DNA from: Patescibacteria group bacterium
GTDB lineage: Bacteria > Patescibacteriota > Microgenomatia > JAMCZE01
Assembly: GCA_023485845.1 (NCBI GenBank)
Contig: JAMCZE010000010.1
Span: 156,046-220,045, forward strand
Length of the DNA stretch: 64,000 nucleotides
Reading direction: 5' to 3'
Below the pieces are notes generated by a model. The model did no database searches and was not told the origin of the DNA. It was given only the letters and a program-made list of their open reading frames with translations. Positions 469 to 20,462 of this stretch are shown in pieces; positions within the stretch are counted from its first letter, which is position 1; the number at the start of each line of letters is the position of its first letter. The position numbers and the translations under genes are program-made.

Positions 469-659
469 TTTTTCCTCACTTCCCCTTCCATTTGCAATTT
501 GTTTTTCCAACATCTCGGGGCAGCTTCCGAATAAATCAAGCGAAAAAGTTTAAGCATCGCAATAGCCTTCACTTCCGCTTCCGCATCAGAAAGATGTTCA
601 CCGAATTGCGTGACATAAATTTCTTTGAAACTGGAAATTGCTTCTGCCGATAAAGTCAT
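465..659 (-). CDS. hypothetical 64-aa protein, translationally coupled to the primase
   Basis: ORF present. Its stop overlaps the primase start as ATGA (465-468). No recognisable domain. Confidence 0.4.
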   Translation of the reverse strand: MTLSAEAISSFKEIYVTQFGEHLSDAEAEVKAIAMLKLFRLIYSEAAPRCWKNKLQMEGEVRKK

Positions 660-937
660 GTTTTGTCATTTGAAATTTGATAAAGTTTGTCTTTTAGTGT
701 TTTGGTTGCCATCTCGAATTCACGAGCGTCAACCATCACTTCCGGAGAATTTTTTTCTGCAAAATTAAACGACTGCACCAAGCTTTTTCTTTCCAATGTA
801 TCCAAAAACACAAACTGTGATCTTTGGGGAATTGCCCGATCAATGTCAACCAATCGAAGACCCTTTACATACAAGAAAATCGCACAGTAGAAGTTCGAGG
901 TAGCAAAATGTTCATTGCCATACGAATTTTTATCCAT
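656..937 (-). CDS. hypothetical 93-aa protein
   Basis: ORF present. It overlaps the next ORF by ATGA (656-659). No recognisable domain. Confidence 0.4.
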   Translation of the reverse strand: MDKNSYGNEHFATSNFYCAIFLYVKGLRLVDIDRAIPQRSQFVFLDTLERKSLVQSFNFAEKNSPEVMVDAREFEMATKTLKDKLYQISNDKT

Positions 938-996: not shown

Positions 997-1497
997 CTAC
1001 ACCCCCTTCAAGAAATCACGATATTGCTTAATAGCTCTTATTATTGCCCCCTCTGTAACATTCTTTTCCAACTTATATATGGCTTTATAACTCACCCCGT
1101 TCATATGTTGCCGGTACCACTTTCTATCTCGTTGCAAATTCGACACGGTGTCTGGGAGTTTTCTATACGGTTCGTCGTTAAATACCGCGACTAGTTTATC
1201 GTCATTAGCAACTGCGATTGTTTTAAAGTAATACTTCCGCATAAAATTGAAGGTTTCCATCACCTCACTTGGGGAAGACTCCTTGTTCACTTGAATAGTT
1301 GCAACTTCGTTACCTTCGTCCATTTCATCCCGTAATTCTTTAACTGTTTTGCTATCTAAAATAAGCATTTGAGTTGCCAAAAAATCATCCGATTGAACGC
1401 GTCCATTCAAGATAGAGGCCAAAATAACAGGCAGGTAGAGTCTATGCTTTTTATGTTTTTTTTGTAAAACCTCGGCGAAAACGAGAGCCGCAGCCAA
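997..1497 (-). CDS. hypothetical protein (166 aa)
   Basis: ORF present. Acidic central region and a helical C-terminus. No motif recognised. Confidence 0.35.
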   Translation of the reverse strand: MAAALVFAEVLQKKHKKHRLYLPVILASILNGRVQSDDFLATQMLILDSKTVKELRDEMDEGNEVATIQVNKESSPSEVMETFNFMRKYYFKTIAVANDDKLVAVFNDEPYRKLPDTVSNLQRDRKWYRQHMNGVSYKAIYKLEKNVTEGAIIRAIKQYRDFLKGV

Positions 1498-1554
1498 AGG
1501 CTTATCGAGTTGACTAAGATAGATATGTTTTTCATCACAAACCCCTCGAAGTAA

Positions 1555-2099
1555 GTGACACTCCTCGCAGCAAGCTGCGAGGCATCTGCATTGCTAAAAT
1601 AGCCTGAGTTGGTCTTTTGATATTTGGACATAGTCTTTTGGTCTTCCTTGGTTTCTGATGTACTTTTGGATGACTGTCTCAGAATTGCTTCGTCCTACTG
1701 AATTTACGAAATACCCGTCAGTCCAAAACTGGGCTCCCCAAAGGCTTTCCCTCAACCCGGCAACTCGTTTGAGAAGTTCCCGGGCCAGGATACTTTTGAC
1801 CGTTCTGGCAATTTTGGTAGGAGAATATGTAGGCACTGACTGGATCAAAAAATGGACATGATCACCGTCGGCCCCAATCTCCACAAAATGCATCTCGTAC
1901 CTTTGGGAAATTTCCTGACAGATCTGTTTTAGTTGGGCATCCACCTCTGTCGAGATCACGAGTTGCCTTCCCTTGGCCACACAAACCAGATGGTACAAAA
2001 GCACCGAGACATTGTGCGCTTTGTGTATGTAGATACTCACGCATACAATTTTACCCTCTCGCGGCAAAGCCGCGGGGAATGAACCCTAAAAGAGATTCA
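1555..2099 (-). mobile_element. IS200/IS605-family insertion sequence, copy 1 (545 bp)
   Basis: Identical at every position to the 545-bp blocks at 17333-17877 and 18381-18925. It has subterminal hairpins (ctcgcagcaagctgcgag at one end, ccgcggcaaagccgcgg at the other) and no terminal inverted repeats, as expected for IS200. Confidence 0.85.
1594..2067 (-). CDS. tnpA: IS200-like Y1 (HUH) transposase TnpA
   Basis: 157 aa. HUH motif DHVHFLI and a downstream catalytic Tyr region (SVPTYSPTKIARTVKS). Typical IS200 TnpA size. Confidence 0.9.
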   Translation of the reverse strand: MPREGKIVCVSIYIHKAHNVSVLLYHLVCVAKGRQLVISTEVDAQLKQICQEISQRYEMHFVEIGADGDHVHFLIQSVPTYSPTKIARTVKSILARELLKRVAGLRESLWGAQFWTDGYFVNSVGRSNSETVIQKYIRNQGRPKDYVQISKDQLRLF

Positions 2100-2329
2100 A
2101 CTGTACCAAAAATGTTTAAATGTCCATTTTTATAAAAATTAACAACATTGTTCGCTTCACCATAAGTAAACTTGGGAAATAAATATGGTACAGACGTAAT
2201 CCCCGCCTTTCTCCTAACATCTGCAATATCAATTAAGAAACTTTCCTGGTCTACAAGGCGAGCAACCAAGCGAGCTTTATTTTCATCATCCCTGATGTCA
2301 ATATAAATTAACTGGGTGCACATATTCAT
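2051..2329 (-). pseudogene. 5' portion of a gene interrupted by IS200 copy 1; only 2100-2329 is native sequence
   Basis: The ORF reads from native DNA into the IS end at 2099. The final 16 codons are IS-derived. The native part has a vague thioredoxin-fold flavour (VNFYKNGH) but no CXXC motif. Confidence 0.35.
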
Positions 2330-12063: not shown

Positions 12064-12546
12064 ATGCACAAATTTTATAAACTCCAATCGTTAGTTCTGC
12101 TCGCCGGGACAATTTTTGTCTGGTTCACGGTTTATACTGATTTCAGTCGATTTTATAAATTCTATGGCTCTTTAACCCGTATACAAAATTGCGTTATCCC
12201 CAACCCCATAACTACGCCATGTTTTTATGGTGCCTTTGCTTTCTTAATTGCTTTTATTTGGTCACTGTTTATCCTCAAAAAGAAAGTTGAAGAAAGATTG
12301 CCCCAGGAAATTAAACTAAGAATCCTTTTGATCGCTTCTACAATTTTCGCTTGGAGCAACTTTTTCTTGGGAATCAATCAATATTATTCTGCTATAAGCG
12401 GCCCAAAAGTTTCTTGTTCCGGAGTACCGACAAATAACCCCATTCTCACTGCTTGTTTTTTTGGTTCGATTATATTTTTGATAGCTCTTGCCGTTTCAAT
12501 AACTATTATCCGTAGCAATAGGCATTCTGCTGATAGTAGTTGCTAA
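12064..12546 (+). CDS. small 4-TM membrane protein with an internally duplicated TM-(Cys-x10-12-Cys loop)-TM unit
   Basis: 160 aa. Loops CVIPNPITTPCFYG and CSGVPTNNPILTACFFG each sit between two hydrophobic helices. Confidence 0.5.
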   Translation: MHKFYKLQSLVLLAGTIFVWFTVYTDFSRFYKFYGSLTRIQNCVIPNPITTPCFYGAFAFLIAFIWSLFILKKKVEERLPQEIKLRILLIASTIFAWSNFFLGINQYYSAISGPKVSCSGVPTNNPILTACFFGSIIFLIALAVSITIIRSNRHSADSSC

Positions 12547-12596
12547 CGTAGTTCACTAGGGACTGCCATTTTTCTAGGCACGATTTTAATATCAAA

Positions 12597-13775
12597 CTAC
12601 ATTAGGCCCGCAAAAGGAATCGAACTAATAAAACTTTTTTCCAGAATATCTAGCCCTCTATTTAAGTTTCTATTGCTAATTATCGCTGGTGGAAAAATAT
12701 CAATTACTCTTTCGTTAAGAGCCTCAATAACTAGCCCGTTTTCCAAACATTTATCAGCTATTTTCTTGGCCAATCCGTCTCGTTCAAACTCTATGAATGT
12801 TGCTAAACCTTTGCTGCGAATAGTACTCCCACTGGGTAAGTTCATACTTAAAAGTCTTTTATTAATAATTAAATTTAGTGAATTTACTTTTCCCAAAATA
12901 CTTTGTTTGTTTTTTAAAAAGTATTTTAGATATGCTAGCGTGATATCCACGTTAAGTGGTTGCCATGCAAATGTTGAATAATAGCTAAATTCAAATTCCA
13001 TCGTTTTCGCCAGTTTTTGATTCATAAGAGTTGCTCCTAAAACGGCATTCCCACCCGTTAATCCCTTTCCCAAACAAACAATATCTGGGAACAAATCAAA
13101 GTATTCTGAAGCAAACATTTTACCCGTTCGACCAAACCCTGTAGCTACCTCATCAATGATAAAAACAGTGCCATATTTTTTACAGGATTCCTGAACTAAT
13201 TGAAAATATTCTTTGCTTGGCTCAACTAGTCCGTTATTAAATATAAACGGTTCGGAAATGTAAGCAGCAATATCTCCCTTATTTATTCTATTAGCTACTT
13301 TTTGTCCAATTTTTCTATCTAGCTGCCCTTTAACCTTTTCGCAGGGCCACAAATGCGGAAATAAATCTTTGTAATGGGAAAACCCTACACTTAAAGCGGC
13401 TAATGAGTGACCATGATATCCTTCTGGAGAAATAAATTTCGATCTCTTAGTATGAAGGATTGCCGCTTGGAGAGCAATTTCGACAGCTTCGGTACCACCT
13501 GTTGCCCGAAAGACCTTTCCCATTTTTCCCGGCGCAATAGAAATCAGTAACTTAGCCAATTCTTCCCATGGTTCGTAAGAGAAGTTTGGATCAACGTAGG
13601 TCGGGCCAAGAAAGTTTTTTCTGGCACTTTGTACTTCCGGGAGACTCCAACCTAAGATACCGCACCAGTTAGTAGAGAAATCAATATATTTCTTGCCAGA
13701 AACGTCGAACAAGTTCTCCCCCTTGGCAGATTTAACATTAATTCTTCTTGCCGGAACATCTCGACCTAAATACAT
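12597..13775 (-). CDS. class III PLP-dependent aminotransferase
   Basis: Motifs DEVATGFGRTGKMFA and LGKGLTGG (PLP-lysine region). 392 aa. Confidence 0.85.
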   Translation of the reverse strand: MYLGRDVPARRINVKSAKGENLFDVSGKKYIDFSTNWCGILGWSLPEVQSARKNFLGPTYVDPNFSYEPWEELAKLLISIAPGKMGKVFRATGGTEAVEIALQAAILHTKRSKFISPEGYHGHSLAALSVGFSHYKDLFPHLWPCEKVKGQLDRKIGQKVANRINKGDIAAYISEPFIFNNGLVEPSKEYFQLVQESCKKYGTVFIIDEVATGFGRTGKMFASEYFDLFPDIVCLGKGLTGGNAVLGATLMNQKLAKTMEFEFSYYSTFAWQPLNVDITLAYLKYFLKNKQSILGKVNSLNLIINKRLLSMNLPSGSTIRSKGLATFIEFERDGLAKKIADKCLENGLVIEALNERVIDIFPPAIISNRNLNRGLDILEKSFISSIPFAGLM

Positions 13776-13906
13776 AAATCACAATAAGGCCTATTCTATC
13801 ATTTACCTTGGTAACAAGTTGCTGACATAGTTTATTAGGGTCTGCCAATTTTCTAGGCACGATTTTCGTAACAAACAACGTCAGACCCGCAAGAGGAATC
13901 GGACTT

Positions 13907-14620
13907 CTAAAAATTTTTACCAGTTCTGGAGATTTCGTCAATGAAACTTAAATTACCTTTAAAGGCTTTAACGATATTGATTTCTCTCATGAAAGCTTCC
14001 TTTGTCTGAAACGGTTTCGTGATGTAATTTTCTACTTCTGCTGCCTTAACCCACTCGTATTTACCTTCCTCACTTTCTACTAATTTACCTTCTGGATTTC
14101 TGAAAACGCATAACGCCAATAATAAATCGTCAAGTAATTCGCTCGTGGCTTCGTCAAGCGTGCAGTAGTGTAAAATTGCCACCACTTCCGGCTCACCGTT
14201 TAATCCTGTTTCTTCAAATAACTCTCTTTTCGCTGCGTCACCAAATCTTTCACCTAATTCCACTTTCCCTGCGGGAAAACCCTGACAACCATAAAATGGG
14301 TGTTTTAATCTAGTGTAAAGTAAAAACTTGGCGCCTTCCTTTTCTTCTTTTACACAGCACACTGCTACCCCAATTTTTGCTTGCTGGCGAATAGTTGCTT
14401 CCCCCAAATCCATACGTGCAGCAAATTTTTTCCCTTGTGTTGTTAAATAATATTTTCCGTCGTTTTTTTGAATACGACCTAATTTAATAAGCTGGTCCAA
14501 ATGAAACTGAAACTGGTTATTACCCATATCTTTATCTGGCTTAAGCTTGGTATAAGAGAGAGGCTGTTCGAAGGCAAGTTTCTTAATTATCTCAAGTTGG
14601 GTCTTATGTATATTCTCCAT
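13907..14620 (-). CDS. NUDIX hydrolase with an N-terminal winged-helix DNA-binding domain
   Basis: Nudix box GFPAGKVELGERFGDAAKRELFEETGL in the C-terminal half. The N-terminal roughly 90 aa is wHTH-like. Confidence 0.7.
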   Translation of the reverse strand: MENIHKTQLEIIKKLAFEQPLSYTKLKPDKDMGNNQFQFHLDQLIKLGRIQKNDGKYYLTTQGKKFAARMDLGEATIRQQAKIGVAVCCVKEEKEGAKFLLYTRLKHPFYGCQGFPAGKVELGERFGDAAKRELFEETGLNGEPEVVAILHYCTLDEATSELLDDLLLALCVFRNPEGKLVESEEGKYEWVKAAEVENYITKPFQTKEAFMREINIVKAFKGNLSFIDEISRTGKNF

Positions 14621-14889
14621 ATAAAGGGATTATACCTTGCTAGCAGCTCATTTCTAGTCTAGCCTTATTGACTACGCAGAAGATACTAGAACCGCCCTGC
14701 ATTTTCTTGGTAGTAGTTACTACTACAGTTCACTGGGATCTACTTGTGCAAGCATTACACAACTATAAACTTTTGAGCACAATAAGTTCGAATGTGTTCC
14801 ATCCAGGGCTGCCAATTTTCACTTTCAGAGTATTTAGCTACTATGTTGAATGGTACTGTCAAGTACCCCTTTTGTTGCACACTCTTTCT

Positions 14890-15654
14890 CTAAACCCGGC
14901 TTAGAAATTTTGCCTTGAATTTGACCGGGGAAGTCTTGAGCTTGGTGTGGATCCTCTCGTGGTTGTAATAGTTGATGGTTTTGTGAATAGCCTCCACAAA
15001 CTCGCCGATCGTCTCAAATCTTTCAAATTCCAATCCTAAGTCTGTTTTAAAGTTGTCGTAGAAGGATTCCTGGTAACCGTTCTCCCAAGGACTGGCTTTA
15101 GCAGACATGCTCACCTGGATTCCCAGGCCTTCTAAAAAGTTGGTGTAATCCTTCGAGTTGTACTCGGCTCCCTGATCAGTGTGAGCCACTACTGGTTTAC
15201 CCACTGTTTTAATGGCATCCAAGAAAGCCTCAAGAACCAACTCTGTAGTGTGCCTGGTGGAAATTGACCAGCCAACAATTTCCCGGGTAAACAGATCCAT
15301 AAAAGTGGCTAGGTAAATAATCCTCTGGTTCCAGGCTAGCCGGGTAAAATCCCCGGCAAAATAGACTCGGGGTTTGATGGGACAACTACCCTTAATTAGA
15401 TTGGGAAACTTTGACAGTGGATTTCCCCAATCTTTCTTTTTTGTCCACCTGGCCTTTCTCTTGTAGGGTTTAATCCCAAATAATTTCATCACTCGTCTGA
15501 CTCGTTTCTTCCCGATTTCCAAAGCCAAAGCTACTCTCCGGTGGCCATAACTAGGATTAGTTTCCAAGATCTTAAGGATTTGCTCTTTTAGAGCCGAATC
15601 TTTTGTCCCTTGCCTAAGGTTGTCGGTGTAAAGATTTCTTCGGGAGATGCCCAA
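14890..15654 (-). CDS. IS3-family transposase OrfB (DDE integrase core)
   Basis: rve-type core: D in HTDQGAEY, E in SPWENGYQESF. The frame is open upstream to the A-run. The track start is TTG. Confidence 0.85.
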   Translation of the reverse strand: MGISRRNLYTDNLRQGTKDSALKEQILKILETNPSYGHRRVALALEIGKKRVRRVMKLFGIKPYKRKARWTKKKDWGNPLSKFPNLIKGSCPIKPRVYFAGDFTRLAWNQRIIYLATFMDLFTREIVGWSISTRHTTELVLEAFLDAIKTVGKPVVAHTDQGAEYNSKDYTNFLEGLGIQVSMSAKASPWENGYQESFYDNFKTDLGLEFERFETIGEFVEAIHKTINYYNHERIHTKLKTSPVKFKAKFLSRV

Positions 15655-15706
15655 AGAATTGGAAATAAGGGACTTGGGTATTTGAGGAAGCTTGGCTTCG
15701 ACAATT

Positions 15707-15961
15707 TTACCTAAGTTTCTTTTTTTTTACCTTCTCCACTTCCAGAGACAAAACCCCAATGATCTCCTTTAGTTGCCGGTTCTCTTTTTTAAGTCTCAGG
15801 TGCTCAATCCAGCTGACTTTGTTGGTGGTGTTCCACCTAAGCCAGCCATAAATGGTTTTGGGGGAGATTCCGTAAGTTTGGGCCAGAGTGGCGGCAGATT
15901 CCCCGGATTTAATCTTGGCCAGGACCTCCTCTTTGACCTCTTTGGCAATAGCGGTTTTCAA
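15707..15961 (-). CDS. IS3-family transposase OrfA (HTH plus leucine zipper)
   Basis: 84 aa, HTH (LAQTYGISPKTIYGWLRW). It ends in the A9G slippery run GTAAAAAAAAAG. Confidence 0.85.
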   Translation of the reverse strand: MKTAIAKEVKEEVLAKIKSGESAATLAQTYGISPKTIYGWLRWNTTNKVSWIEHLRLKKENRQLKEIIGVLSLEVEKVKKKKLR

Positions 15962-16011
15962 AAATATTCACCCCCTTAAATAAGTGTCCTTAGTTTACAG
16001 ACACTGTGTGC

Positions 16012-16040
16012 ATTTTAAGGGGTACCTGTCCTACTGTCAA
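16012..16040 (-). promoter_or_regulatory. junction promoter formed by the abutted IS3 ends: TTGACA (16040-16035), 17-nt spacer, TAAAAT (16017-16012), reading toward orfA of copy A
   Basis: The -35 hexamer lies in the end of copy B and the -10 hexamer in the end of copy A. The 17-nt spacer was read directly from the sequence. Confidence 0.6.
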
Positions 16041-16067
16041 GTACCCCTTTTGTTGCACACTCTTTCT

Positions 16068-16832
16068 CTAAACCCGGCTTAGAAATTTTGCCTTGAATTT
16101 GACCGGGGAAGTCTTGAGCTTGGTGTGGATCCTCTCGTGGTTGTAATAGTTGATGGTTTTGTGAATAGCCTCCACAAACTCGCCGATCGTCTCAAATCTT
16201 TCAAATTCCAATCCTAAGTCTGTTTTAAAGTTGTCGTAGAAGGATTCCTGGTAACCGTTCTCCCAAGGACTGGCTTTAGCAGACATGCTCACCTGGATTC
16301 CCAGGCCTTCTAAAAAGTTGGTGTAATCCTTCGAGTTGTACTCGGCTCCCTGATCAGTGTGAGCCACTACTGGTTTACCCACTGTTTTAATGGCATCCAA
16401 GAAAGCCTCAAGAACCAACTCTGTAGTGTGCCTGGTGGAAATTGACCAGCCAACAATTTCCCGGGTAAACAGATCCATAAAAGTGGCTAGGTAAATAATC
16501 CTCTGGTTCCAGGCTAGCCGGGTAAAATCCCCGGCAAAATAGACTCGGGGTTTGATGGGACAACTACCCTTAATTAGATTGGGAAACTTTGACAGTGGAT
16601 TTCCCCAATCTTTCTTTTTTGTCCACCTGGCCTTTCTCTTGTAGGGTTTAATCCCAAATAATTTCATCACTCGTCTGACTCGTTTCTTCCCGATTTCCAA
16701 AGCCAAAGCTACTCTCCGGTGGCCATAACTAGGATTAGTTTCCAAGATCTTAAGGATTTGCTCTTTTAGAGCCGAATCTTTTGTCCCTTGCCTAAGGTTG
16801 TCGGTGTAAAGATTTCTTCGGGAGATGCCCAA
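16068..16832 (-). CDS. IS3-family transposase OrfB (copy B)
   Basis: Identical to 14890-15654. Confidence 0.85.
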   Translation of the reverse strand: MGISRRNLYTDNLRQGTKDSALKEQILKILETNPSYGHRRVALALEIGKKRVRRVMKLFGIKPYKRKARWTKKKDWGNPLSKFPNLIKGSCPIKPRVYFAGDFTRLAWNQRIIYLATFMDLFTREIVGWSISTRHTTELVLEAFLDAIKTVGKPVVAHTDQGAEYNSKDYTNFLEGLGIQVSMSAKASPWENGYQESFYDNFKTDLGLEFERFETIGEFVEAIHKTINYYNHERIHTKLKTSPVKFKAKFLSRV

Positions 16833-16884
16833 AGAATTGGAAATAAGGGACTTGGGTATTTGAGGAAGCTTGGCTTCGACAATT

Positions 16885-17139
16885 TTACCTAAGTTTCTTT
16901 TTTTTTACCTTCTCCACTTCCAGAGACAAAACCCCAATGATCTCCTTTAGTTGCCGGTTCTCTTTTTTAAGTCTCAGGTGCTCAATCCAGCTGACTTTGT
17001 TGGTGGTGTTCCACCTAAGCCAGCCATAAATGGTTTTGGGGGAGATTCCGTAAGTTTGGGCCAGAGTGGCGGCAGATTCCCCGGATTTAATCTTGGCCAG
17101 GACCTCCTCTTTGACCTCTTTGGCAATAGCGGTTTTCAA
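16885..17139 (-). CDS. IS3-family transposase OrfA (copy B)
   Basis: Identical to 15707-15961. Confidence 0.85.
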   Translation of the reverse strand: MKTAIAKEVKEEVLAKIKSGESAATLAQTYGISPKTIYGWLRWNTTNKVSWIEHLRLKKENRQLKEIIGVLSLEVEKVKKKKLR

Positions 17140-17332
17140 AAATATTCACCCCCTTAAATAAGTGTCCTTAGTTTACAGACACTGTGTGCATTTTAAGGGG
17201 TACCTGTCCACTTTATAAAGATAATGCAACCATAAGGCAAGCGGATTTCCCATTGTTAATTGATGTTTTTTTTGAAAATGCTAAGCCTAATATCCAAAAA
17301 CTTTTGGCTGTAGAAGCAGAAATTATTAGAGA

Positions 17333-17877
17333 GTGACACTCCTCGCAGCAAGCTGCGAGGCATCTGCATTGCTAAAATAGCCTGAGTTGGTCTTTTGATA
17401 TTTGGACATAGTCTTTTGGTCTTCCTTGGTTTCTGATGTACTTTTGGATGACTGTCTCAGAATTGCTTCGTCCTACTGAATTTACGAAATACCCGTCAGT
17501 CCAAAACTGGGCTCCCCAAAGGCTTTCCCTCAACCCGGCAACTCGTTTGAGAAGTTCCCGGGCCAGGATACTTTTGACCGTTCTGGCAATTTTGGTAGGA
17601 GAATATGTAGGCACTGACTGGATCAAAAAATGGACATGATCACCGTCGGCCCCAATCTCCACAAAATGCATCTCGTACCTTTGGGAAATTTCCTGACAGA
17701 TCTGTTTTAGTTGGGCATCCACCTCTGTCGAGATCACGAGTTGCCTTCCCTTGGCCACACAAACCAGATGGTACAAAAGCACCGAGACATTGTGCGCTTT
17801 GTGTATGTAGATACTCACGCATACAATTTTACCCTCTCGCGGCAAAGCCGCGGGGAATGAACCCTAAAAGAGATTCA
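17333..17877 (-). mobile_element. IS200/IS605-family insertion sequence, copy 2
   Basis: Identical to the 545-bp copy 1. Confidence 0.85.
17372..17845 (-). CDS. tnpA: IS200-like Y1 transposase TnpA (copy 2)
   Basis: Identical to 1594-2067. Confidence 0.9.
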   Translation of the reverse strand: MPREGKIVCVSIYIHKAHNVSVLLYHLVCVAKGRQLVISTEVDAQLKQICQEISQRYEMHFVEIGADGDHVHFLIQSVPTYSPTKIARTVKSILARELLKRVAGLRESLWGAQFWTDGYFVNSVGRSNSETVIQKYIRNQGRPKDYVQISKDQLRLF

Positions 17878-17899
17878 CAATCTTAAAATAGCTTTTAAT

Positions 17900-18355
17900 T
17901 CAGATAACCAGTTTTGCAAAAAGACTTTTGGAGGGAGGCGTGAGTTTAACCTTTGCTAATTCTTCAAGAGTAAACCATTTGTATTCTGACAATTCATCAT
18001 CAAGCTGAACTTTTACCTCACTGCTATTTCTATCATTGATGTCAATTCGATAGACGTTGAAATGCATTTCAACAAGAACCCTCTCATTTGTGTCCTTTAA
18101 GGTTTTTTCTGATGTTCCCGTTCCCTCATCATTAACAAGTTCAGTTGCGTACCCTTCAACCTCTAACCCTATTTCTTCTTTCAGTTCTCTTCTTAATGCC
18201 TGAGTCTTGTTTTCGCCTTGATCCACACCTCCTCCTGGAATATGCCAGCAATCAATATAAACTCCACCGCCAGTTGGATTCTTTTTTACCATCAATAATC
18301 TTTTATCTTTTGAAAAAAGTAAGCCCGATACAATTTCTCTCTTGATCGTTCTCAT
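17900..18355 (-). CDS. NUDIX hydrolase
   Basis: Nudix box GGGVDQGENKTQALRRELKEEIGL. 151 aa. Lies between IS200 copies 2 and 3. Confidence 0.85.
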   Translation of the reverse strand: MRTIKREIVSGLLFSKDKRLLMVKKNPTGGGVYIDCWHIPGGGVDQGENKTQALRRELKEEIGLEVEGYATELVNDEGTGTSEKTLKDTNERVLVEMHFNVYRIDINDRNSSEVKVQLDDELSEYKWFTLEELAKVKLTPPSKSLFAKLVI

Positions 18356-18380
18356 ATTATTTCTTTACGTTGTAATGTAA

Positions 18381-18925
18381 GTGACACTCCTCGCAGCAAG
18401 CTGCGAGGCATCTGCATTGCTAAAATAGCCTGAGTTGGTCTTTTGATATTTGGACATAGTCTTTTGGTCTTCCTTGGTTTCTGATGTACTTTTGGATGAC
18501 TGTCTCAGAATTGCTTCGTCCTACTGAATTTACGAAATACCCGTCAGTCCAAAACTGGGCTCCCCAAAGGCTTTCCCTCAACCCGGCAACTCGTTTGAGA
18601 AGTTCCCGGGCCAGGATACTTTTGACCGTTCTGGCAATTTTGGTAGGAGAATATGTAGGCACTGACTGGATCAAAAAATGGACATGATCACCGTCGGCCC
18701 CAATCTCCACAAAATGCATCTCGTACCTTTGGGAAATTTCCTGACAGATCTGTTTTAGTTGGGCATCCACCTCTGTCGAGATCACGAGTTGCCTTCCCTT
18801 GGCCACACAAACCAGATGGTACAAAAGCACCGAGACATTGTGCGCTTTGTGTATGTAGATACTCACGCATACAATTTTACCCTCTCGCGGCAAAGCCGCG
18901 GGGAATGAACCCTAAAAGAGATTCA
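18381..18925 (-). mobile_element. IS200/IS605-family insertion sequence, copy 3
   Basis: Identical to the 545-bp copy 1. Confidence 0.85.
18420..18893 (-). CDS. tnpA: IS200-like Y1 transposase TnpA (copy 3)
   Basis: Identical to 1594-2067. Confidence 0.9.
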   Translation of the reverse strand: MPREGKIVCVSIYIHKAHNVSVLLYHLVCVAKGRQLVISTEVDAQLKQICQEISQRYEMHFVEIGADGDHVHFLIQSVPTYSPTKIARTVKSILARELLKRVAGLRESLWGAQFWTDGYFVNSVGRSNSETVIQKYIRNQGRPKDYVQISKDQLRLF

Positions 18926-19295: not shown

Positions 19296-19637
19296 ATGCA
19301 AATTGCCACCGGAACTGTCCACACGGTGCCCCCGGACTTGAAAAAAGCCCTGGCGGCTGACCCCGGCGCGCTGGAAAAATGGAACAGTCTGACGCCGCTG
19401 GCCCGAAACGAATGGATTTGCTGGACAACTTTTGTTAAAAAAGCGCAGACCAGGGAAGAGCACGTTGACCGGGTGTGCTCCGAACTTAAAGACGGCATGC
19501 GCCGGCCGTGTTGCTGGCTAGGCTGCATTCACCGCCCCGACAAACCCCTAAGTCCGTCAGTGAAATATGTGCTTAGCCGAAAAAATATGGTAAAATGGAG
19601 GCATGGTGAATTGGTCCACGGACGAAAAAAAGTTTAA
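19296..19637 (+). CDS. YdeI/OmpD-associated family protein
   Basis: Pattern LKKALAADPGALEKWNSLTPLARNEWICW...AQTREEHVDRV is typical of that family. Confidence 0.6.
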   Translation: MQIATGTVHTVPPDLKKALAADPGALEKWNSLTPLARNEWICWTTFVKKAQTREEHVDRVCSELKDGMRRPCCWLGCIHRPDKPLSPSVKYVLSRKNMVKWRHGELVHGRKKV

Positions 19638-19854
19638 GCGGAACTATCCCAGGGAATATAAACTTTGGCACTTAATCCAACTTATTAATTATGGACTTGA
19701 AGGGGAGAAGCTTGACGAGAAAGAGGTTAGGAAAGCCTGGCCAAGAATAAGGGACCAGTTAGACCCCCATAAGGCAACTTATCTTGAATTCTTATTATGG
19801 GATCACAAACCATCCTCAATCCAATTCAACGAGAATTTCTGGGCCTTATCATAA
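19603..19854 (+). CDS. hypothetical 83-aa protein overlapping the start of the next gene
   Basis: ORF only. 58-bp overlap with the NTase gene in another frame. Confidence 0.3.
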   Translation: MVNWSTDEKKFKRNYPREYKLWHLIQLINYGLEGEKLDEKEVRKAWPRIRDQLDPHKATYLEFLLWDHKPSSIQFNENFWALS

Positions 19855-20462
19855 AGGAACCATATATTCTCAAACATTATTACTGGACCGGTGGGACCGC
19901 ACTGGCTGAATTCTATCTTCGCCATCGGGAATCGGAAGATATTGATCTGTTTTCGGAAAACGAAGTTAATGTCGGGGCGATCTCAAATTTCGTTGGAGCG
20001 ATGGCCAAAAAAATTGAAGCGACCGATATAACCAGCCAGCGTTTCCTTGGGCTCTACAGTTTCACTTTCCACCTGCCGAAAACATCACTAAAAGTTGATT
20101 TTAACTACTATCCTTTCCTTCGAATTGATCAAAAGAAAAAATGGCAAGGATTAGCCGTTGACAGTCTCGAGGACATCGCCGTCAATAAAGTGCACACGAT
20201 GTTTATGAAGCCGCGGGCGAGGGATTTTGTTGATCTTTACTTTATTCTCAAAAAAGAATACGAGTTTTCTTTGGAAAGATTAATCAATCTAGCCGATGCC
20301 AAGTTTGATTGGCACATCGAACCGGTGCAGCTCGGAGAAAACTTTGCCAAAGTGGTTGCAATTAAAGATTTCCCAAAAATGCTCGTTCCTTTTGACAAAA
20401 AAGCCATGGAAAAATTTTTTCTGAATTTAGCAAAATCACTAAAACCGCAGATTTTCCAATAA
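19797..20462 (+). CDS. AbiEii/DUF1814-like nucleotidyltransferase
   Basis: The GGTAL...SEDIDLF motif (GSx10DxD NTase signature) lies near the N-terminus. About 220 aa. Confidence 0.5.
   Translation: MGSQTILNPIQREFLGLIIKEPYILKHYYWTGGTALAEFYLRHRESEDIDLFSENEVNVGAISNFVGAMAKKIEATDITSQRFLGLYSFTFHLPKTSLKVDFNYYPFLRIDQKKKWQGLAVDSLEDIAVNKVHTMFMKPRARDFVDLYFILKKEYEFSLERLINLADAKFDWHIEPVQLGENFAKVVAIKDFPKMLVPFDKKAMEKFFLNLAKSLKPQIFQ

Follow-up and report, generated by a model that had tools for sequence, protein, structure and literature searches.

The DNA analysed here is a 64-kb window from a Patescibacteria MAG, in which an intact NUDIX hydrolase gene lies between two identical IS200-group insertion sequences in direct orientation, and a third identical copy is present elsewhere in the window. 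This arrangement, which had been described in an earlier note, was borne out by the repeat search, the Pfam match of the NUDIX product and the strands of the genes. The segment holds the following features.

17332..17872, minus strand: IS200-group copy 2, 541 bp, delimited by exact repeat
17341..17360, minus strand (tnpA-sense): right-end subterminal hairpin of copy 2
17372..17818, minus strand: tnpA of copy 2, encoding a Y1 HUH transposase
17832..17855, minus strand (tnpA-sense): left-end subterminal hairpin of copy 2
17873..17877, minus strand: TGAAT target of copy 2, starting 17 nt past the NUDIX stop codon and placing the left end of copy 2 at 22 nt past it
17900..18355, minus strand: intact gene for a NUDIX hydrolase of 151 aa, bracketed by copies 2 and 3
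18380..18920, minus strand: IS200-group copy 3, 541 bp, delimited by exact repeat, with boundaries from six independent junctions and in-silico empty sites
18389-18408, minus strand: right-end hairpin of copy 3, the same as in copy 2
18420..18866, minus strand: tnpA of copy 3, encoding a Y1 HUH transposase of 148 aa with a GTG start
18880-18903, minus strand: left-end hairpin of copy 3, the same as in copy 2
18921..18925, minus strand: TGAAT target of copy 3, 5' of the left end (ATTCA on the plus strand)

Exact-match extension and a repeat search of the window returned three blocks that are 100 % identical and all on the minus strand. The earlier note had given 545 bp from position 17333; the complete identity held, but the coordinates were off by one base.

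1554-2099, minus strand: repeat block 1, 546 bp
17332-17877, minus strand: repeat block 2, 546 bp
18380-18925, minus strand: repeat block 3, 546 bp

Each block consists of a 541-bp insertion sequence and its 5-nt TGAAT target; the 3 additional flanking bases that blocks 1 and 3 have in common are a chance match. The element is made up of a 54-nt left end, the 447-nt tnpA gene (148 aa) and a 40-nt right end, so that a second gene such as tnpB would not fit. Terminal inverted repeats are absent, the two ends agreeing at only 5/40 positions. Instead, a subterminal hairpin is found at either end of the tnpA-sense strand. The left-end hairpin, CCCCGCGGC-TTT-GCCGCG(AGA)GGG, has a single-stranded DNA fold z of -3.0 and begins 17-20 nt past the predicted cleavage site, and the right-end hairpin, CCTCGCAGC-TT-GCTGCGAGG, identified by motif search and a single-stranded DNA fold, sits 9 nt short of the 3' end of the element, ...TCACT. 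A promoter consensus scan of the element revealed neither a tnpA promoter nor an outward promoter at the right end, which in copy 3 precedes the NUDIX start codon by 24 nt (the left end of this copy being at its high coordinate). When a genome collection was scanned with the 34-nt left-end hairpin region, the sole match was a relative of 82 % identity in a MAG labelled Gammaproteobacteria; both hairpins are unchanged in this relative, while the rest of the element has diverged. The relative is located directly upstream of Ham1/ITPase, another nucleotide-pool sanitising gene. Many of the homologues at ~60-85 % identity are found on contigs of only ~520-700 bp.

The tnpA product matched Pfam Y1_Tnp (PF01797) with E=4.7e-34 (117.6 bits, cut-off 23) and the NCBIfam model NF033573 transpos_IS200 with 124.5 bits, above its cut-off of 55. 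It also matched the PDB structures of the IS608, ISDra2 and Sulfolobus TnpA proteins at E values of 1e-12 to 3e-15. In the alignment with IS608 TnpA (31.5 % identity), the HUH motif DHVHFL pairs with DHIHIL, and QKYIRNQ pairs with KQYIENQ, whose KQY motif we take, from the IS608 structures, to contain the catalytic Tyr. The product of the copy 3 gene is identical to the NCBI protein P0121, 'IS200/IS605 family transposase', and the IS200-group genes of the window already carry matching NCBI annotation. Judged by these sequence matches, the element is a genuine insertion sequence of the IS200/IS605 family, IS200 group. An origin as a domesticated REP-associated tyrosine transposase (RAYT) with REP hairpins, rather than an insertion sequence, might be suggested by the GC-rich hairpins flanking the gene, as such a reading expects, and by the label 'REP element-mobilizing transposase RayT' given by JGI to some homologues at 61-67 % identity. 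However, the NCBIfam RAYT model NF047646 scored 24.6 bits against a cut-off of 80 where the IS200 model passed, and the hairpin motifs, for which chance predicts 0 matches, occur solely inside the three copies, with no solo ones elsewhere in the 64 kb. RAYTs are typically single-copy, and here tnpA is present several times, in identical copies of the whole element that break into open reading frames. A RAYT/REP identity is therefore extremely improbable and effectively refuted.

The boundaries of the element and its target were also read from insertions into genes, one of which is copy 1.

997..2329, minus strand: conserved hypothetical gene (~263 aa) split by copy 1, with its N-terminal piece from 2329 down to 2095 and its C-terminal piece from 1553 down to 997
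1554..2094, minus strand: IS200-group copy 1, inside this gene, with its TGAAT target at 2095-2099; delimited by exact repeat and in-silico empty site

In-silico removal of 541 nt with TGAAT kept restored a 265-codon reading frame across copy 1, and the restored protein aligned gap-free across the junction with an intact 261-aa homologue (P0242; 50 % identity, 99 % coverage). A fourth identical copy splits a serine-recombinase gene in a sister MAG (locus L004), where the same removal of 541 nt restored a 560-codon reading frame. Since both frames are regained with a single TGAAT left in place, the element inserts without target-site duplication, although a natural allele with an empty site was not found. 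At both loci the two halves of the split gene have remained open throughout and join again in frame. The element occupies at least four insertion sites, two of them gene-disrupting. TGAAT was found 5' of the left end in 6/6 independent insertions, with differing bases farther out; the only features common to all six junctions are this 5'-side TGAAT and the TCACT at the 3' end, and a search of the six sites for a wider target motif yielded none. The 541-nt length and the retained TGAAT fit what is described for the IS200/IS605 family, namely left-end insertion 3' of a tetra- or pentanucleotide specific to the element (PMC5027513). Members of this family also preferentially carry their top strand on the lagging-strand template (PMC5027513). 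GC skew is negative throughout the window and the minus strand carries most long reading frames past 24 kb, which makes the G-rich minus strand the lagging-strand template; the top strand of all three window copies lies on it, a statistically weak observation at n=3.

Copy 2 is separated by 122 nt from an IS3-family element, which is context rather than part of the NUDIX unit.

14854..17209, minus strand: IS3-family element, exact head-to-tail dimer of 2 x 1178 bp (14854-16031 and 16032-17209)
16012..16040, minus strand: promoter-like site at the IS3-IS3 junction, TTGACA-17 nt-TAAAAT, matching at 11/12 positions

The element scored 203.9 bits against NCBIfam transpos_IS3 (cut-off 160) and has rve and HTH domains. 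Its orfB follows an A9 run and is set in the +1 frame, in keeping with a DDE (rve) transposase putatively made from orfA and orfB by recoding. By eye, its terminal inverted repeats GTCAAGTACCCCTT / GACAGGTACCCCTT are imperfect and are flanked on either outer side by ACT. Plain deletion of the element fused a 63-codon reading frame; a deletion that also removed one ACT duplication did not. The two abutted ends, in the order IRR-TACT-IRL, lie 3-4 nt apart, the spacing being copied from the flank, as in the minicircle junctions and (IS)2 dimers of IS2, IS911 and IS3, and a junction promoter is formed in the same manner: the junction site was the best site of the promoter scan within 14.7-19.2 kb and matches the Pjunc described for junctions of IS2 and other IS3-family elements (PMC3219604). 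The frame arrangement resembles that of the IS1447 subgroup, for which +1 transcriptional slippage has been described (PMC6211511), and slippage is a candidate mechanism here as well; IS1447-like elements are described as Firmicutes-enriched, whereas the present one is in Patescibacteria. Two sister assemblies have just one copy of the IS3 element at this site; the dimer may reflect a difference between strains or a loop at the circle junction that the assembler resolved. The earlier note had taken the dimer and the three identical IS200 copies together as marks of a very recent burst. Recent transposition is supported by the identity of the copies, which a collapsed MAG repeat could mimic, and by the two gene splits that rejoin in frame.

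The NUDIX protein matched Pfam NUDIX (PF00293) with E=5.2e-20, contains by eye a complete Nudix box, GGVDQGENKTQALRRELKEEIGL, and is 100 % identical to NCBI MCL5432250.1. No NCBIfam equivalog passed its own cut-off for this protein, so a substrate could not be assigned. A match to the PADLOC defence candidate PDC-S07 was generic, being shared by an unrelated wHTH-NUDIX gene, and was discarded as uninformative about a defence role. Homologues numbered 164 at E<=0.001; the best 120 of the 164 share 46-81 % identity, and the few that are named are of Patescibacteria type (Shapirobacteria, Saccharimonadales). GC content is 0.361 in the NUDIX cassette, 0.392 in the region around it and 0.473 in the IS200-group element; the cassette lies in a low-GC island rich in mobile elements, and its composition agrees with the island and not with the insertion sequence. 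A TGAAT inside the NUDIX coding sequence (17992) is empty, and the two intergenic TGAAT sites are occupied.

The earlier note had proposed a comparison with related genomes for presence or absence of the cassette. In three examined contexts (L001-L003), homologues of 65-81 % identity were found without flanking insertion sequences, in surroundings other than the present one, and nothing in the comparison shows the NUDIX gene travelling with the element. A relative with the same context free of the element was not found: metagenome DNA scans with a NUDIX 33-mer and with a 36-mer from the flank adjoining DUF1653, which sought an IS-free or alternative context, each gave 0 hits, and the genome scan led only to the distant Gammaproteobacteria host. 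Protein look-ups, within a limited search space, recorded the exact NUDIX protein from one contig only.

Two separate insertions beside a resident NUDIX gene provide the best explanation for the arrangement, with a probability of roughly 0.7, and this would be ordinary proliferation of an insertion sequence in a permissive region. We prefer two independent intergenic insertions because NUDIX homologues elsewhere are free of insertion sequences and the GC content of the cassette fits the low-GC island. According to this model, a multicopy and recently active 541-bp element, moving by single-strand 'peel and paste' and inserting 3' of TGAAT, would have inserted once 24 nt upstream of the NUDIX ATG and once just 3' of the TGAAT downstream of the stop codon, leaving the gene intact, and the sandwich would be a side effect of its spread and not a dedicated cassette. 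The native NUDIX promoter would thereby have been moved 541 bp away, and the gene would now probably be read through from the upstream tnpA. Joint movement or recombinational deletion of the NUDIX gene is possible and mechanistically reasonable. If RecA recombined the direct repeats, 1048 bp would be lost, comprising the NUDIX gene and one copy of the element, and the 1589 nt bounded by the left end of copy 3 and the right end of copy 2 could be cut out by TnpA as a unit. Such joint excision would leave the predicted donor joint GAAATTATTAGAG|ATTCAGGAATGGG on the plus strand, and transposition via a circular single-strand intermediate would form the predicted RE-LE junction ...GAGTGTCACT|CTCTTTTAGGG..., or in longer form GAGGAGTGTCACT|CTCTTTTAGGGTTC.

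It is rather improbable that IS-NUDIX-IS (1589 nt) instead came to the TGAAT site as one single-strand transposon with the NUDIX gene as cargo, or that a circular IS-NUDIX (1048 bp) recombined into a resident copy. The direct orientation does order the ends LE...RE...NUDIX...LE...RE, so that TnpA could pair the outer ones, and TGAAT closes the outer left flank, which such a unit needs. The ~1.6-kb length is presumably close to that of two-gene family members such as IS608, and the 82 % relative likewise neighbours a nucleotide-pool sanitising gene. Moreover, two copies within 1 kb would arise by chance with a probability of ~6 %, roughly estimated for an assumed 8 copies in a ~1-Mb genome; this spacing is unlikely by chance and leaves room for local hopping or joint movement. 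An empty-site allele of copy 2 or copy 3 was not found, so import as a unit keeps a small probability beside independent insertion. Against import, the inner copy 2 has a TGAAT target of its own, as independent insertion predicts, the NUDIX gene fits the island in GC content, its homologues lack insertion sequences in the three examined contexts, and no second occurrence of the block was found in the protein look-ups and the metagenome DNA scan, within their limited search space. We consider highly doubtful the combined reading in which the 541-bp element is a fully autonomous insertion sequence markedly smaller than IS200 and the pair, in addition, works as a single-strand compound transposon that takes the NUDIX gene, in a circle of 1589 nt, to further TGAAT sites; if true, this would be a mode of gene mobilisation undocumented for tnpA-only IS200 elements.

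It is also unlikely that the arrangement or the perfect identity is unreal, i.e., that the 541-bp repeat was misresolved or collapsed in the MAG and that the IS3 dimer is a graph loop from circle-junction reads. Contigs of a sister MAG and of Logan that stem from the same population (at 99.99-100 % identity) reach 124-128 nt or 27-29 nt into the IS200 copies before they break off, as is typical of k-mer breaks at a repeat, and the IS3 element, doubled in the window, is single in them. All passes through one repeat node of a de Bruijn graph would be identical by construction. The inner IS-NUDIX junctions, like the NUDIX protein itself, are known from a single contig, a 227.5-kb MAG contig, and sister short-read contigs, which break inside the element, would look no different if a single copy lay between the spacer (17210-17331) and DUF1653. 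However, both outer junctions were independently assembled in sister assemblies, the fourth copy was assembled within a sister contig of 55.9 kb, between flanks that are both unique, and the four junction sequences around the NUDIX gene are all distinct, each obeying the TGAAT/TCACT rule. The split genes reconstruct perfectly, which indicates a real element in a real multiplicity even should one adjacency be wrong.

The element resembles IS200 of Salmonella and other Enterobacteriaceae in having one Y1 HUH transposase gene of ~150 aa, no tnpB and structured ends, and in lacking terminal inverted repeats and target duplication. It differs in length (541 bp versus 707 bp), in a left end of only 54 nt, which lacks a T-run terminator hairpin and is too short for the antisense sRNA region and long structured 5'UTR that IS200 has, in the absence of a detected promoter-like site and in its host, a Patescibacteria MAG. 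With IS608 of Helicobacter pylori and ISDra2 of Deinococcus it shares subterminal hairpins on the active strand, a left end abutting a short specific target and a top strand on the lagging-strand template. It is distinguished from both by the lack of tnpB and by its target, and its cleavage positions and guide-sequence pairing are predicted ones. The target of ISDra2 we take to be TTGAT. That of IS608 is TTAC (PMC5027513), compared to TGAAT here. A passenger between two identical direct copies, open to deletion or circle formation, is reminiscent of composite transposons and IS26-type translocatable units. In contrast to these, the IS200 family uses single-strand excision, not cut-and-paste or cointegrate chemistry, and the NUDIX passenger is of housekeeping type with local base composition.

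Altogether, our results indicate normal transposon activity, with no novel system or mechanism. The consequences of the NUDIX sandwich are local, in that the gene is parted from its own upstream region and could be lost by one recombination event, and the sandwich bears on no open question. At 541 bp, the element is below the 707-bp IS200, named in 2015 as the smallest among the known insertion sequences that are fully autonomous. As an active member of the IS200 group in a Patescibacteria (CPR) genome, it makes a clean and completely delimited example, and its ends, TGAAT target and 541-bp length, fixed from the DNA sequence alone, should aid the annotation of an apparently common compact clade.

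A repeat search of the window recovered a block of 546 bp that was 100 % identical in all three IS200 copies, bearing out the earlier note, whose coordinates required correction by one base; the direct arrangement that it described likewise held, with copies 2 and 3 and the NUDIX gene between them all on one strand.

IS200 copy 1: 1554-2099, minus-strand ORF, identical 546-bp block
IS200 copy 2: 17332-17877, minus-strand ORF, identical 546-bp block
NUDIX gene: 17900-18355, minus strand, 151 aa, Pfam NUDIX match (E=5.2e-20), as the earlier note had named it
IS200 copy 3: 18380-18925, minus-strand ORF, identical 546-bp block

The ORF in each block matched Pfam Y1_Tnp (E=4.7e-34), and NCBI records this protein as 'IS200/IS605 family transposase' on 7 contigs. 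The NUDIX translation, read by eye, contains a complete Nudix box and is 100 % identical to MCL5432250.1 ('MAG: NUDIX hydrolase [Patescibacteria group bacterium]', from a 227,517-bp contig). Annotation of both genes was already public.

We aligned the three copies with an identical fourth copy from a sister MAG (L004) and with an 82 % relative (L005-L007, L013). Read in the direction of tnpA, conservation extends from TGAATCTCTTTTAGGG... to ...GAGGAGTGTCACT, and flanking DNA was unrelated among the 6 independent insertions. The element ends agree at 5/40 positions, without terminal inverted repeats, and no target duplication was observed at the insertions. The tnpA-sense strand has GC-rich hairpins at both ends, the left beginning 17-20 nt past TGAAT and the right stopping 9 nt short of the 3' end. 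Because a natural empty site was unavailable, empty sites were built in silico by deleting 541 nt while keeping TGAAT, within a deletion series of 539-546 nt. The 541-nt deletion joined the ORFs flanking copy 1 into a single 265-codon ORF and gave a 560-codon large serine recombinase ORF at L004; across the series, only deletions of 541 or 544 nt restored both. The joined copy-1 protein aligned with an intact 261-aa homologue (P0242) at 50 % identity and 99 % coverage, ungapped at the junction, whereas the 544-nt alternative would be one residue short. These results therefore define an element of 541 bp (left end, 54 nt; tnpA, 447 nt; right end, 40 nt), positioned 3' of TGAAT, consistent with the family rule that insertion places the left end 3' of a tetra- or pentanucleotide specific to each element (PMC5027513). 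In all three window copies the top strand lies on the G-rich minus strand, which is taken to be the lagging-strand template because GC skew is negative throughout the window; this placement agrees with the bias reported for the IS200/IS605 family (PMC5027513).

TnpA passed the NCBIfam IS200 model (124.5 bits; cut-off, 55) and is 31.5 % identical to that of IS608, with the HUH and tyrosine motifs aligned. A RAYT identity was rejected (24.6 bits; cut-off, 80). All of the defining features of the IS200 group that can be tested from sequence were found, and by these the 541-bp element is a bona fide member of this group of the IS200/IS605 family.

The 82 % nucleotide relative (TnpA 84 % identical; L005-L007, L012, L013; GCA_964603445.1, Logan SRR12217122/3) comes from a MAG labelled Gammaproteobacteria, reflecting either cross-phylum spread or mis-binning, and has a Ham1/ITPase gene directly downstream; a second copy (L013) is truncated by a further insertion. 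The proximity of the IS to another nucleotide-pool sanitising gene is probably due to chance.

Copy 1 interrupts a conserved hypothetical gene of about 263 aa (997-2329, minus; its C-terminal piece is NCBI tag M1484_04030). A DUF5659 gene follows it in the window (656-937) and also follows an intact homologue elsewhere (L014), which suggests a conserved mobile-element module. The fourth copy (L004, 2941-3486; GCA_023378825.1, JAMCSA010000010.1), assembled within a 55.9-kb sister contig, splits a large serine recombinase gene, another hit on a mobile-element gene. Perfect identity on its own is weak evidence of recency in a MAG, where any repeat that has been collapsed necessarily comes out identical. 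However, both halves of each of these two split genes remain fully open and in register, which independently argues that the IS200 insertions are young and supports the recent burst proposed earlier.

The earlier note also mentioned an adjacent IS3 dimer. An exact head-to-tail tandem (2 x 1178 bp, 14854-17209) is present in the window, but sister assemblies have one copy at the same site. Hence, either strain variation or the assembly of circle-junction reads as a tandem accounts for the dimer. It parses best as two units of 1174 bp, bordered on each outer side by ACT and separated by TACT, the same 4 nt as left of the first copy. At the junction (16012-16040, minus), the right end, TACT and the left end form a near-consensus promoter facing the downstream transposase; this site, TTGACA-17-TAAAAT (11/12 positions), was the top promoter-like site of the region in a promoter scan. 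Such junction promoters typify the minicircles and dimers of the IS3 family (PMC3219604), and this one matches the description of IS2/IS911 junctions. Relative to orfA, orfB occupies the +1 rather than the usual -1 frame (ORFs 16885-17139 and 16068-16832, repeated in the other copy), the switch being an A9 run (unit positions 304-312, about 16898-16906). This layout resembles that of the IS1447 subgroup, reported as Firmicutes-enriched, in which +1 transcriptional slippage is used (PMC6211511). Short-read sister assemblies also have nine A in this run, which is thus not a homopolymer error. On either account of its origin, the dimer argues for IS3 transposase activity.

GC content is 38-44 % over the first ~20 kb (1-20500), which holds all three IS200 copies, versus about 50 % over 20500-64000, and this stretch is probably a genomic island or integrated element. 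It encodes an XRE-type HTH protein, DUF5659, a trypsin-like peptidase, an arsR/arsD/arsA operon, two NUDIX genes, AbiEii and IS3; of these, the HTH protein, DUF5659, the ars operon, AbiEii and IS3 are of mobile-element type. The second, unrelated NUDIX gene (13907-14620, minus) carries an N-terminal winged-helix fusion (DUF7347/HTH_45) and lies 233 nt from IS3. A 107-nt direct repeat (82 % identity; 12538-12644 and 13817-13923) lies on both sides of a class-III aminotransferase gene (12597-13775, minus). The AbiEii-type nucleotidyltransferase toxin gene (19797-20462, plus) overlaps an 83-aa ORF upstream of it (pair, 19603-20462) that could encode its antitoxin; PADLOC gave no match for this ORF.

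Both outer IS200 junctions were confirmed in sister assemblies from the same population, which match the window at 99.99-100 % identity (GCA_023378825.1, GCA_023379465.1 and the SRR10267473 and SRR10278331 Logan contigs). Their short-read contigs stop inside the copies, 124-128 nt in (MAG contigs) or 27-29 nt in (Logan contigs), the same appearance as expected if one IS, with no NUDIX gene, lay between the spacer (17210-17331) and the DUF1653 gene. The inner IS-NUDIX junctions are supported by the one long contig.

The NUDIX ATG is 24 nt downstream of the copy 3 right end, and the TGAAT target of copy 2 begins 17 nt past the stop codon. All four junctions around the gene differ, each IS copy having a separate TGAAT. 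Of four minus-strand TGAAT sites at 17.2-19.0 kb, both intergenic ones are occupied, and the CDS-internal and stop-overlapping ones are empty. In GC content, the cassette (0.361) is close to its surroundings (0.392, 1-15 kb) but resembles neither the IS (0.473) nor the remainder of the window (0.498). Homologues of the NUDIX protein numbered 164 at E<=0.001, and the best 120 listed share 46-81 % identity with it; the few named among these are from Patescibacteria-type lineages, and none of three contexts examined (L001-L003) had a flanking IS. Exact-protein look-ups and genome-collection and metagenome DNA scans turned up no other allele of the site, whether carrying or lacking the cassette. 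Altogether, no evidence supported a composite transposon, and the simplest reading is a resident NUDIX gene with two independent insertions around it.

These insertions would have displaced the NUDIX upstream region by 541 bp. A consensus scan found no promoter-like site within the element, and read-through from tnpA is therefore likely. Recombination between the direct repeats would take out 1048 bp, and TnpA could in principle join the copy 3 left end with the copy 2 right end, excising 1589 nt.

The sole unusual property of the element is its size, 166 bp less than that of IS200, which in 2015 was reported to be the smallest known fully autonomous IS (PMC4513863). Homologues occur on many metagenomic contigs of 520-700 bp, which suggests that a compact IS clade is common but uncatalogued. 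Overall, this is ordinary IS biology within an uncultured lineage.
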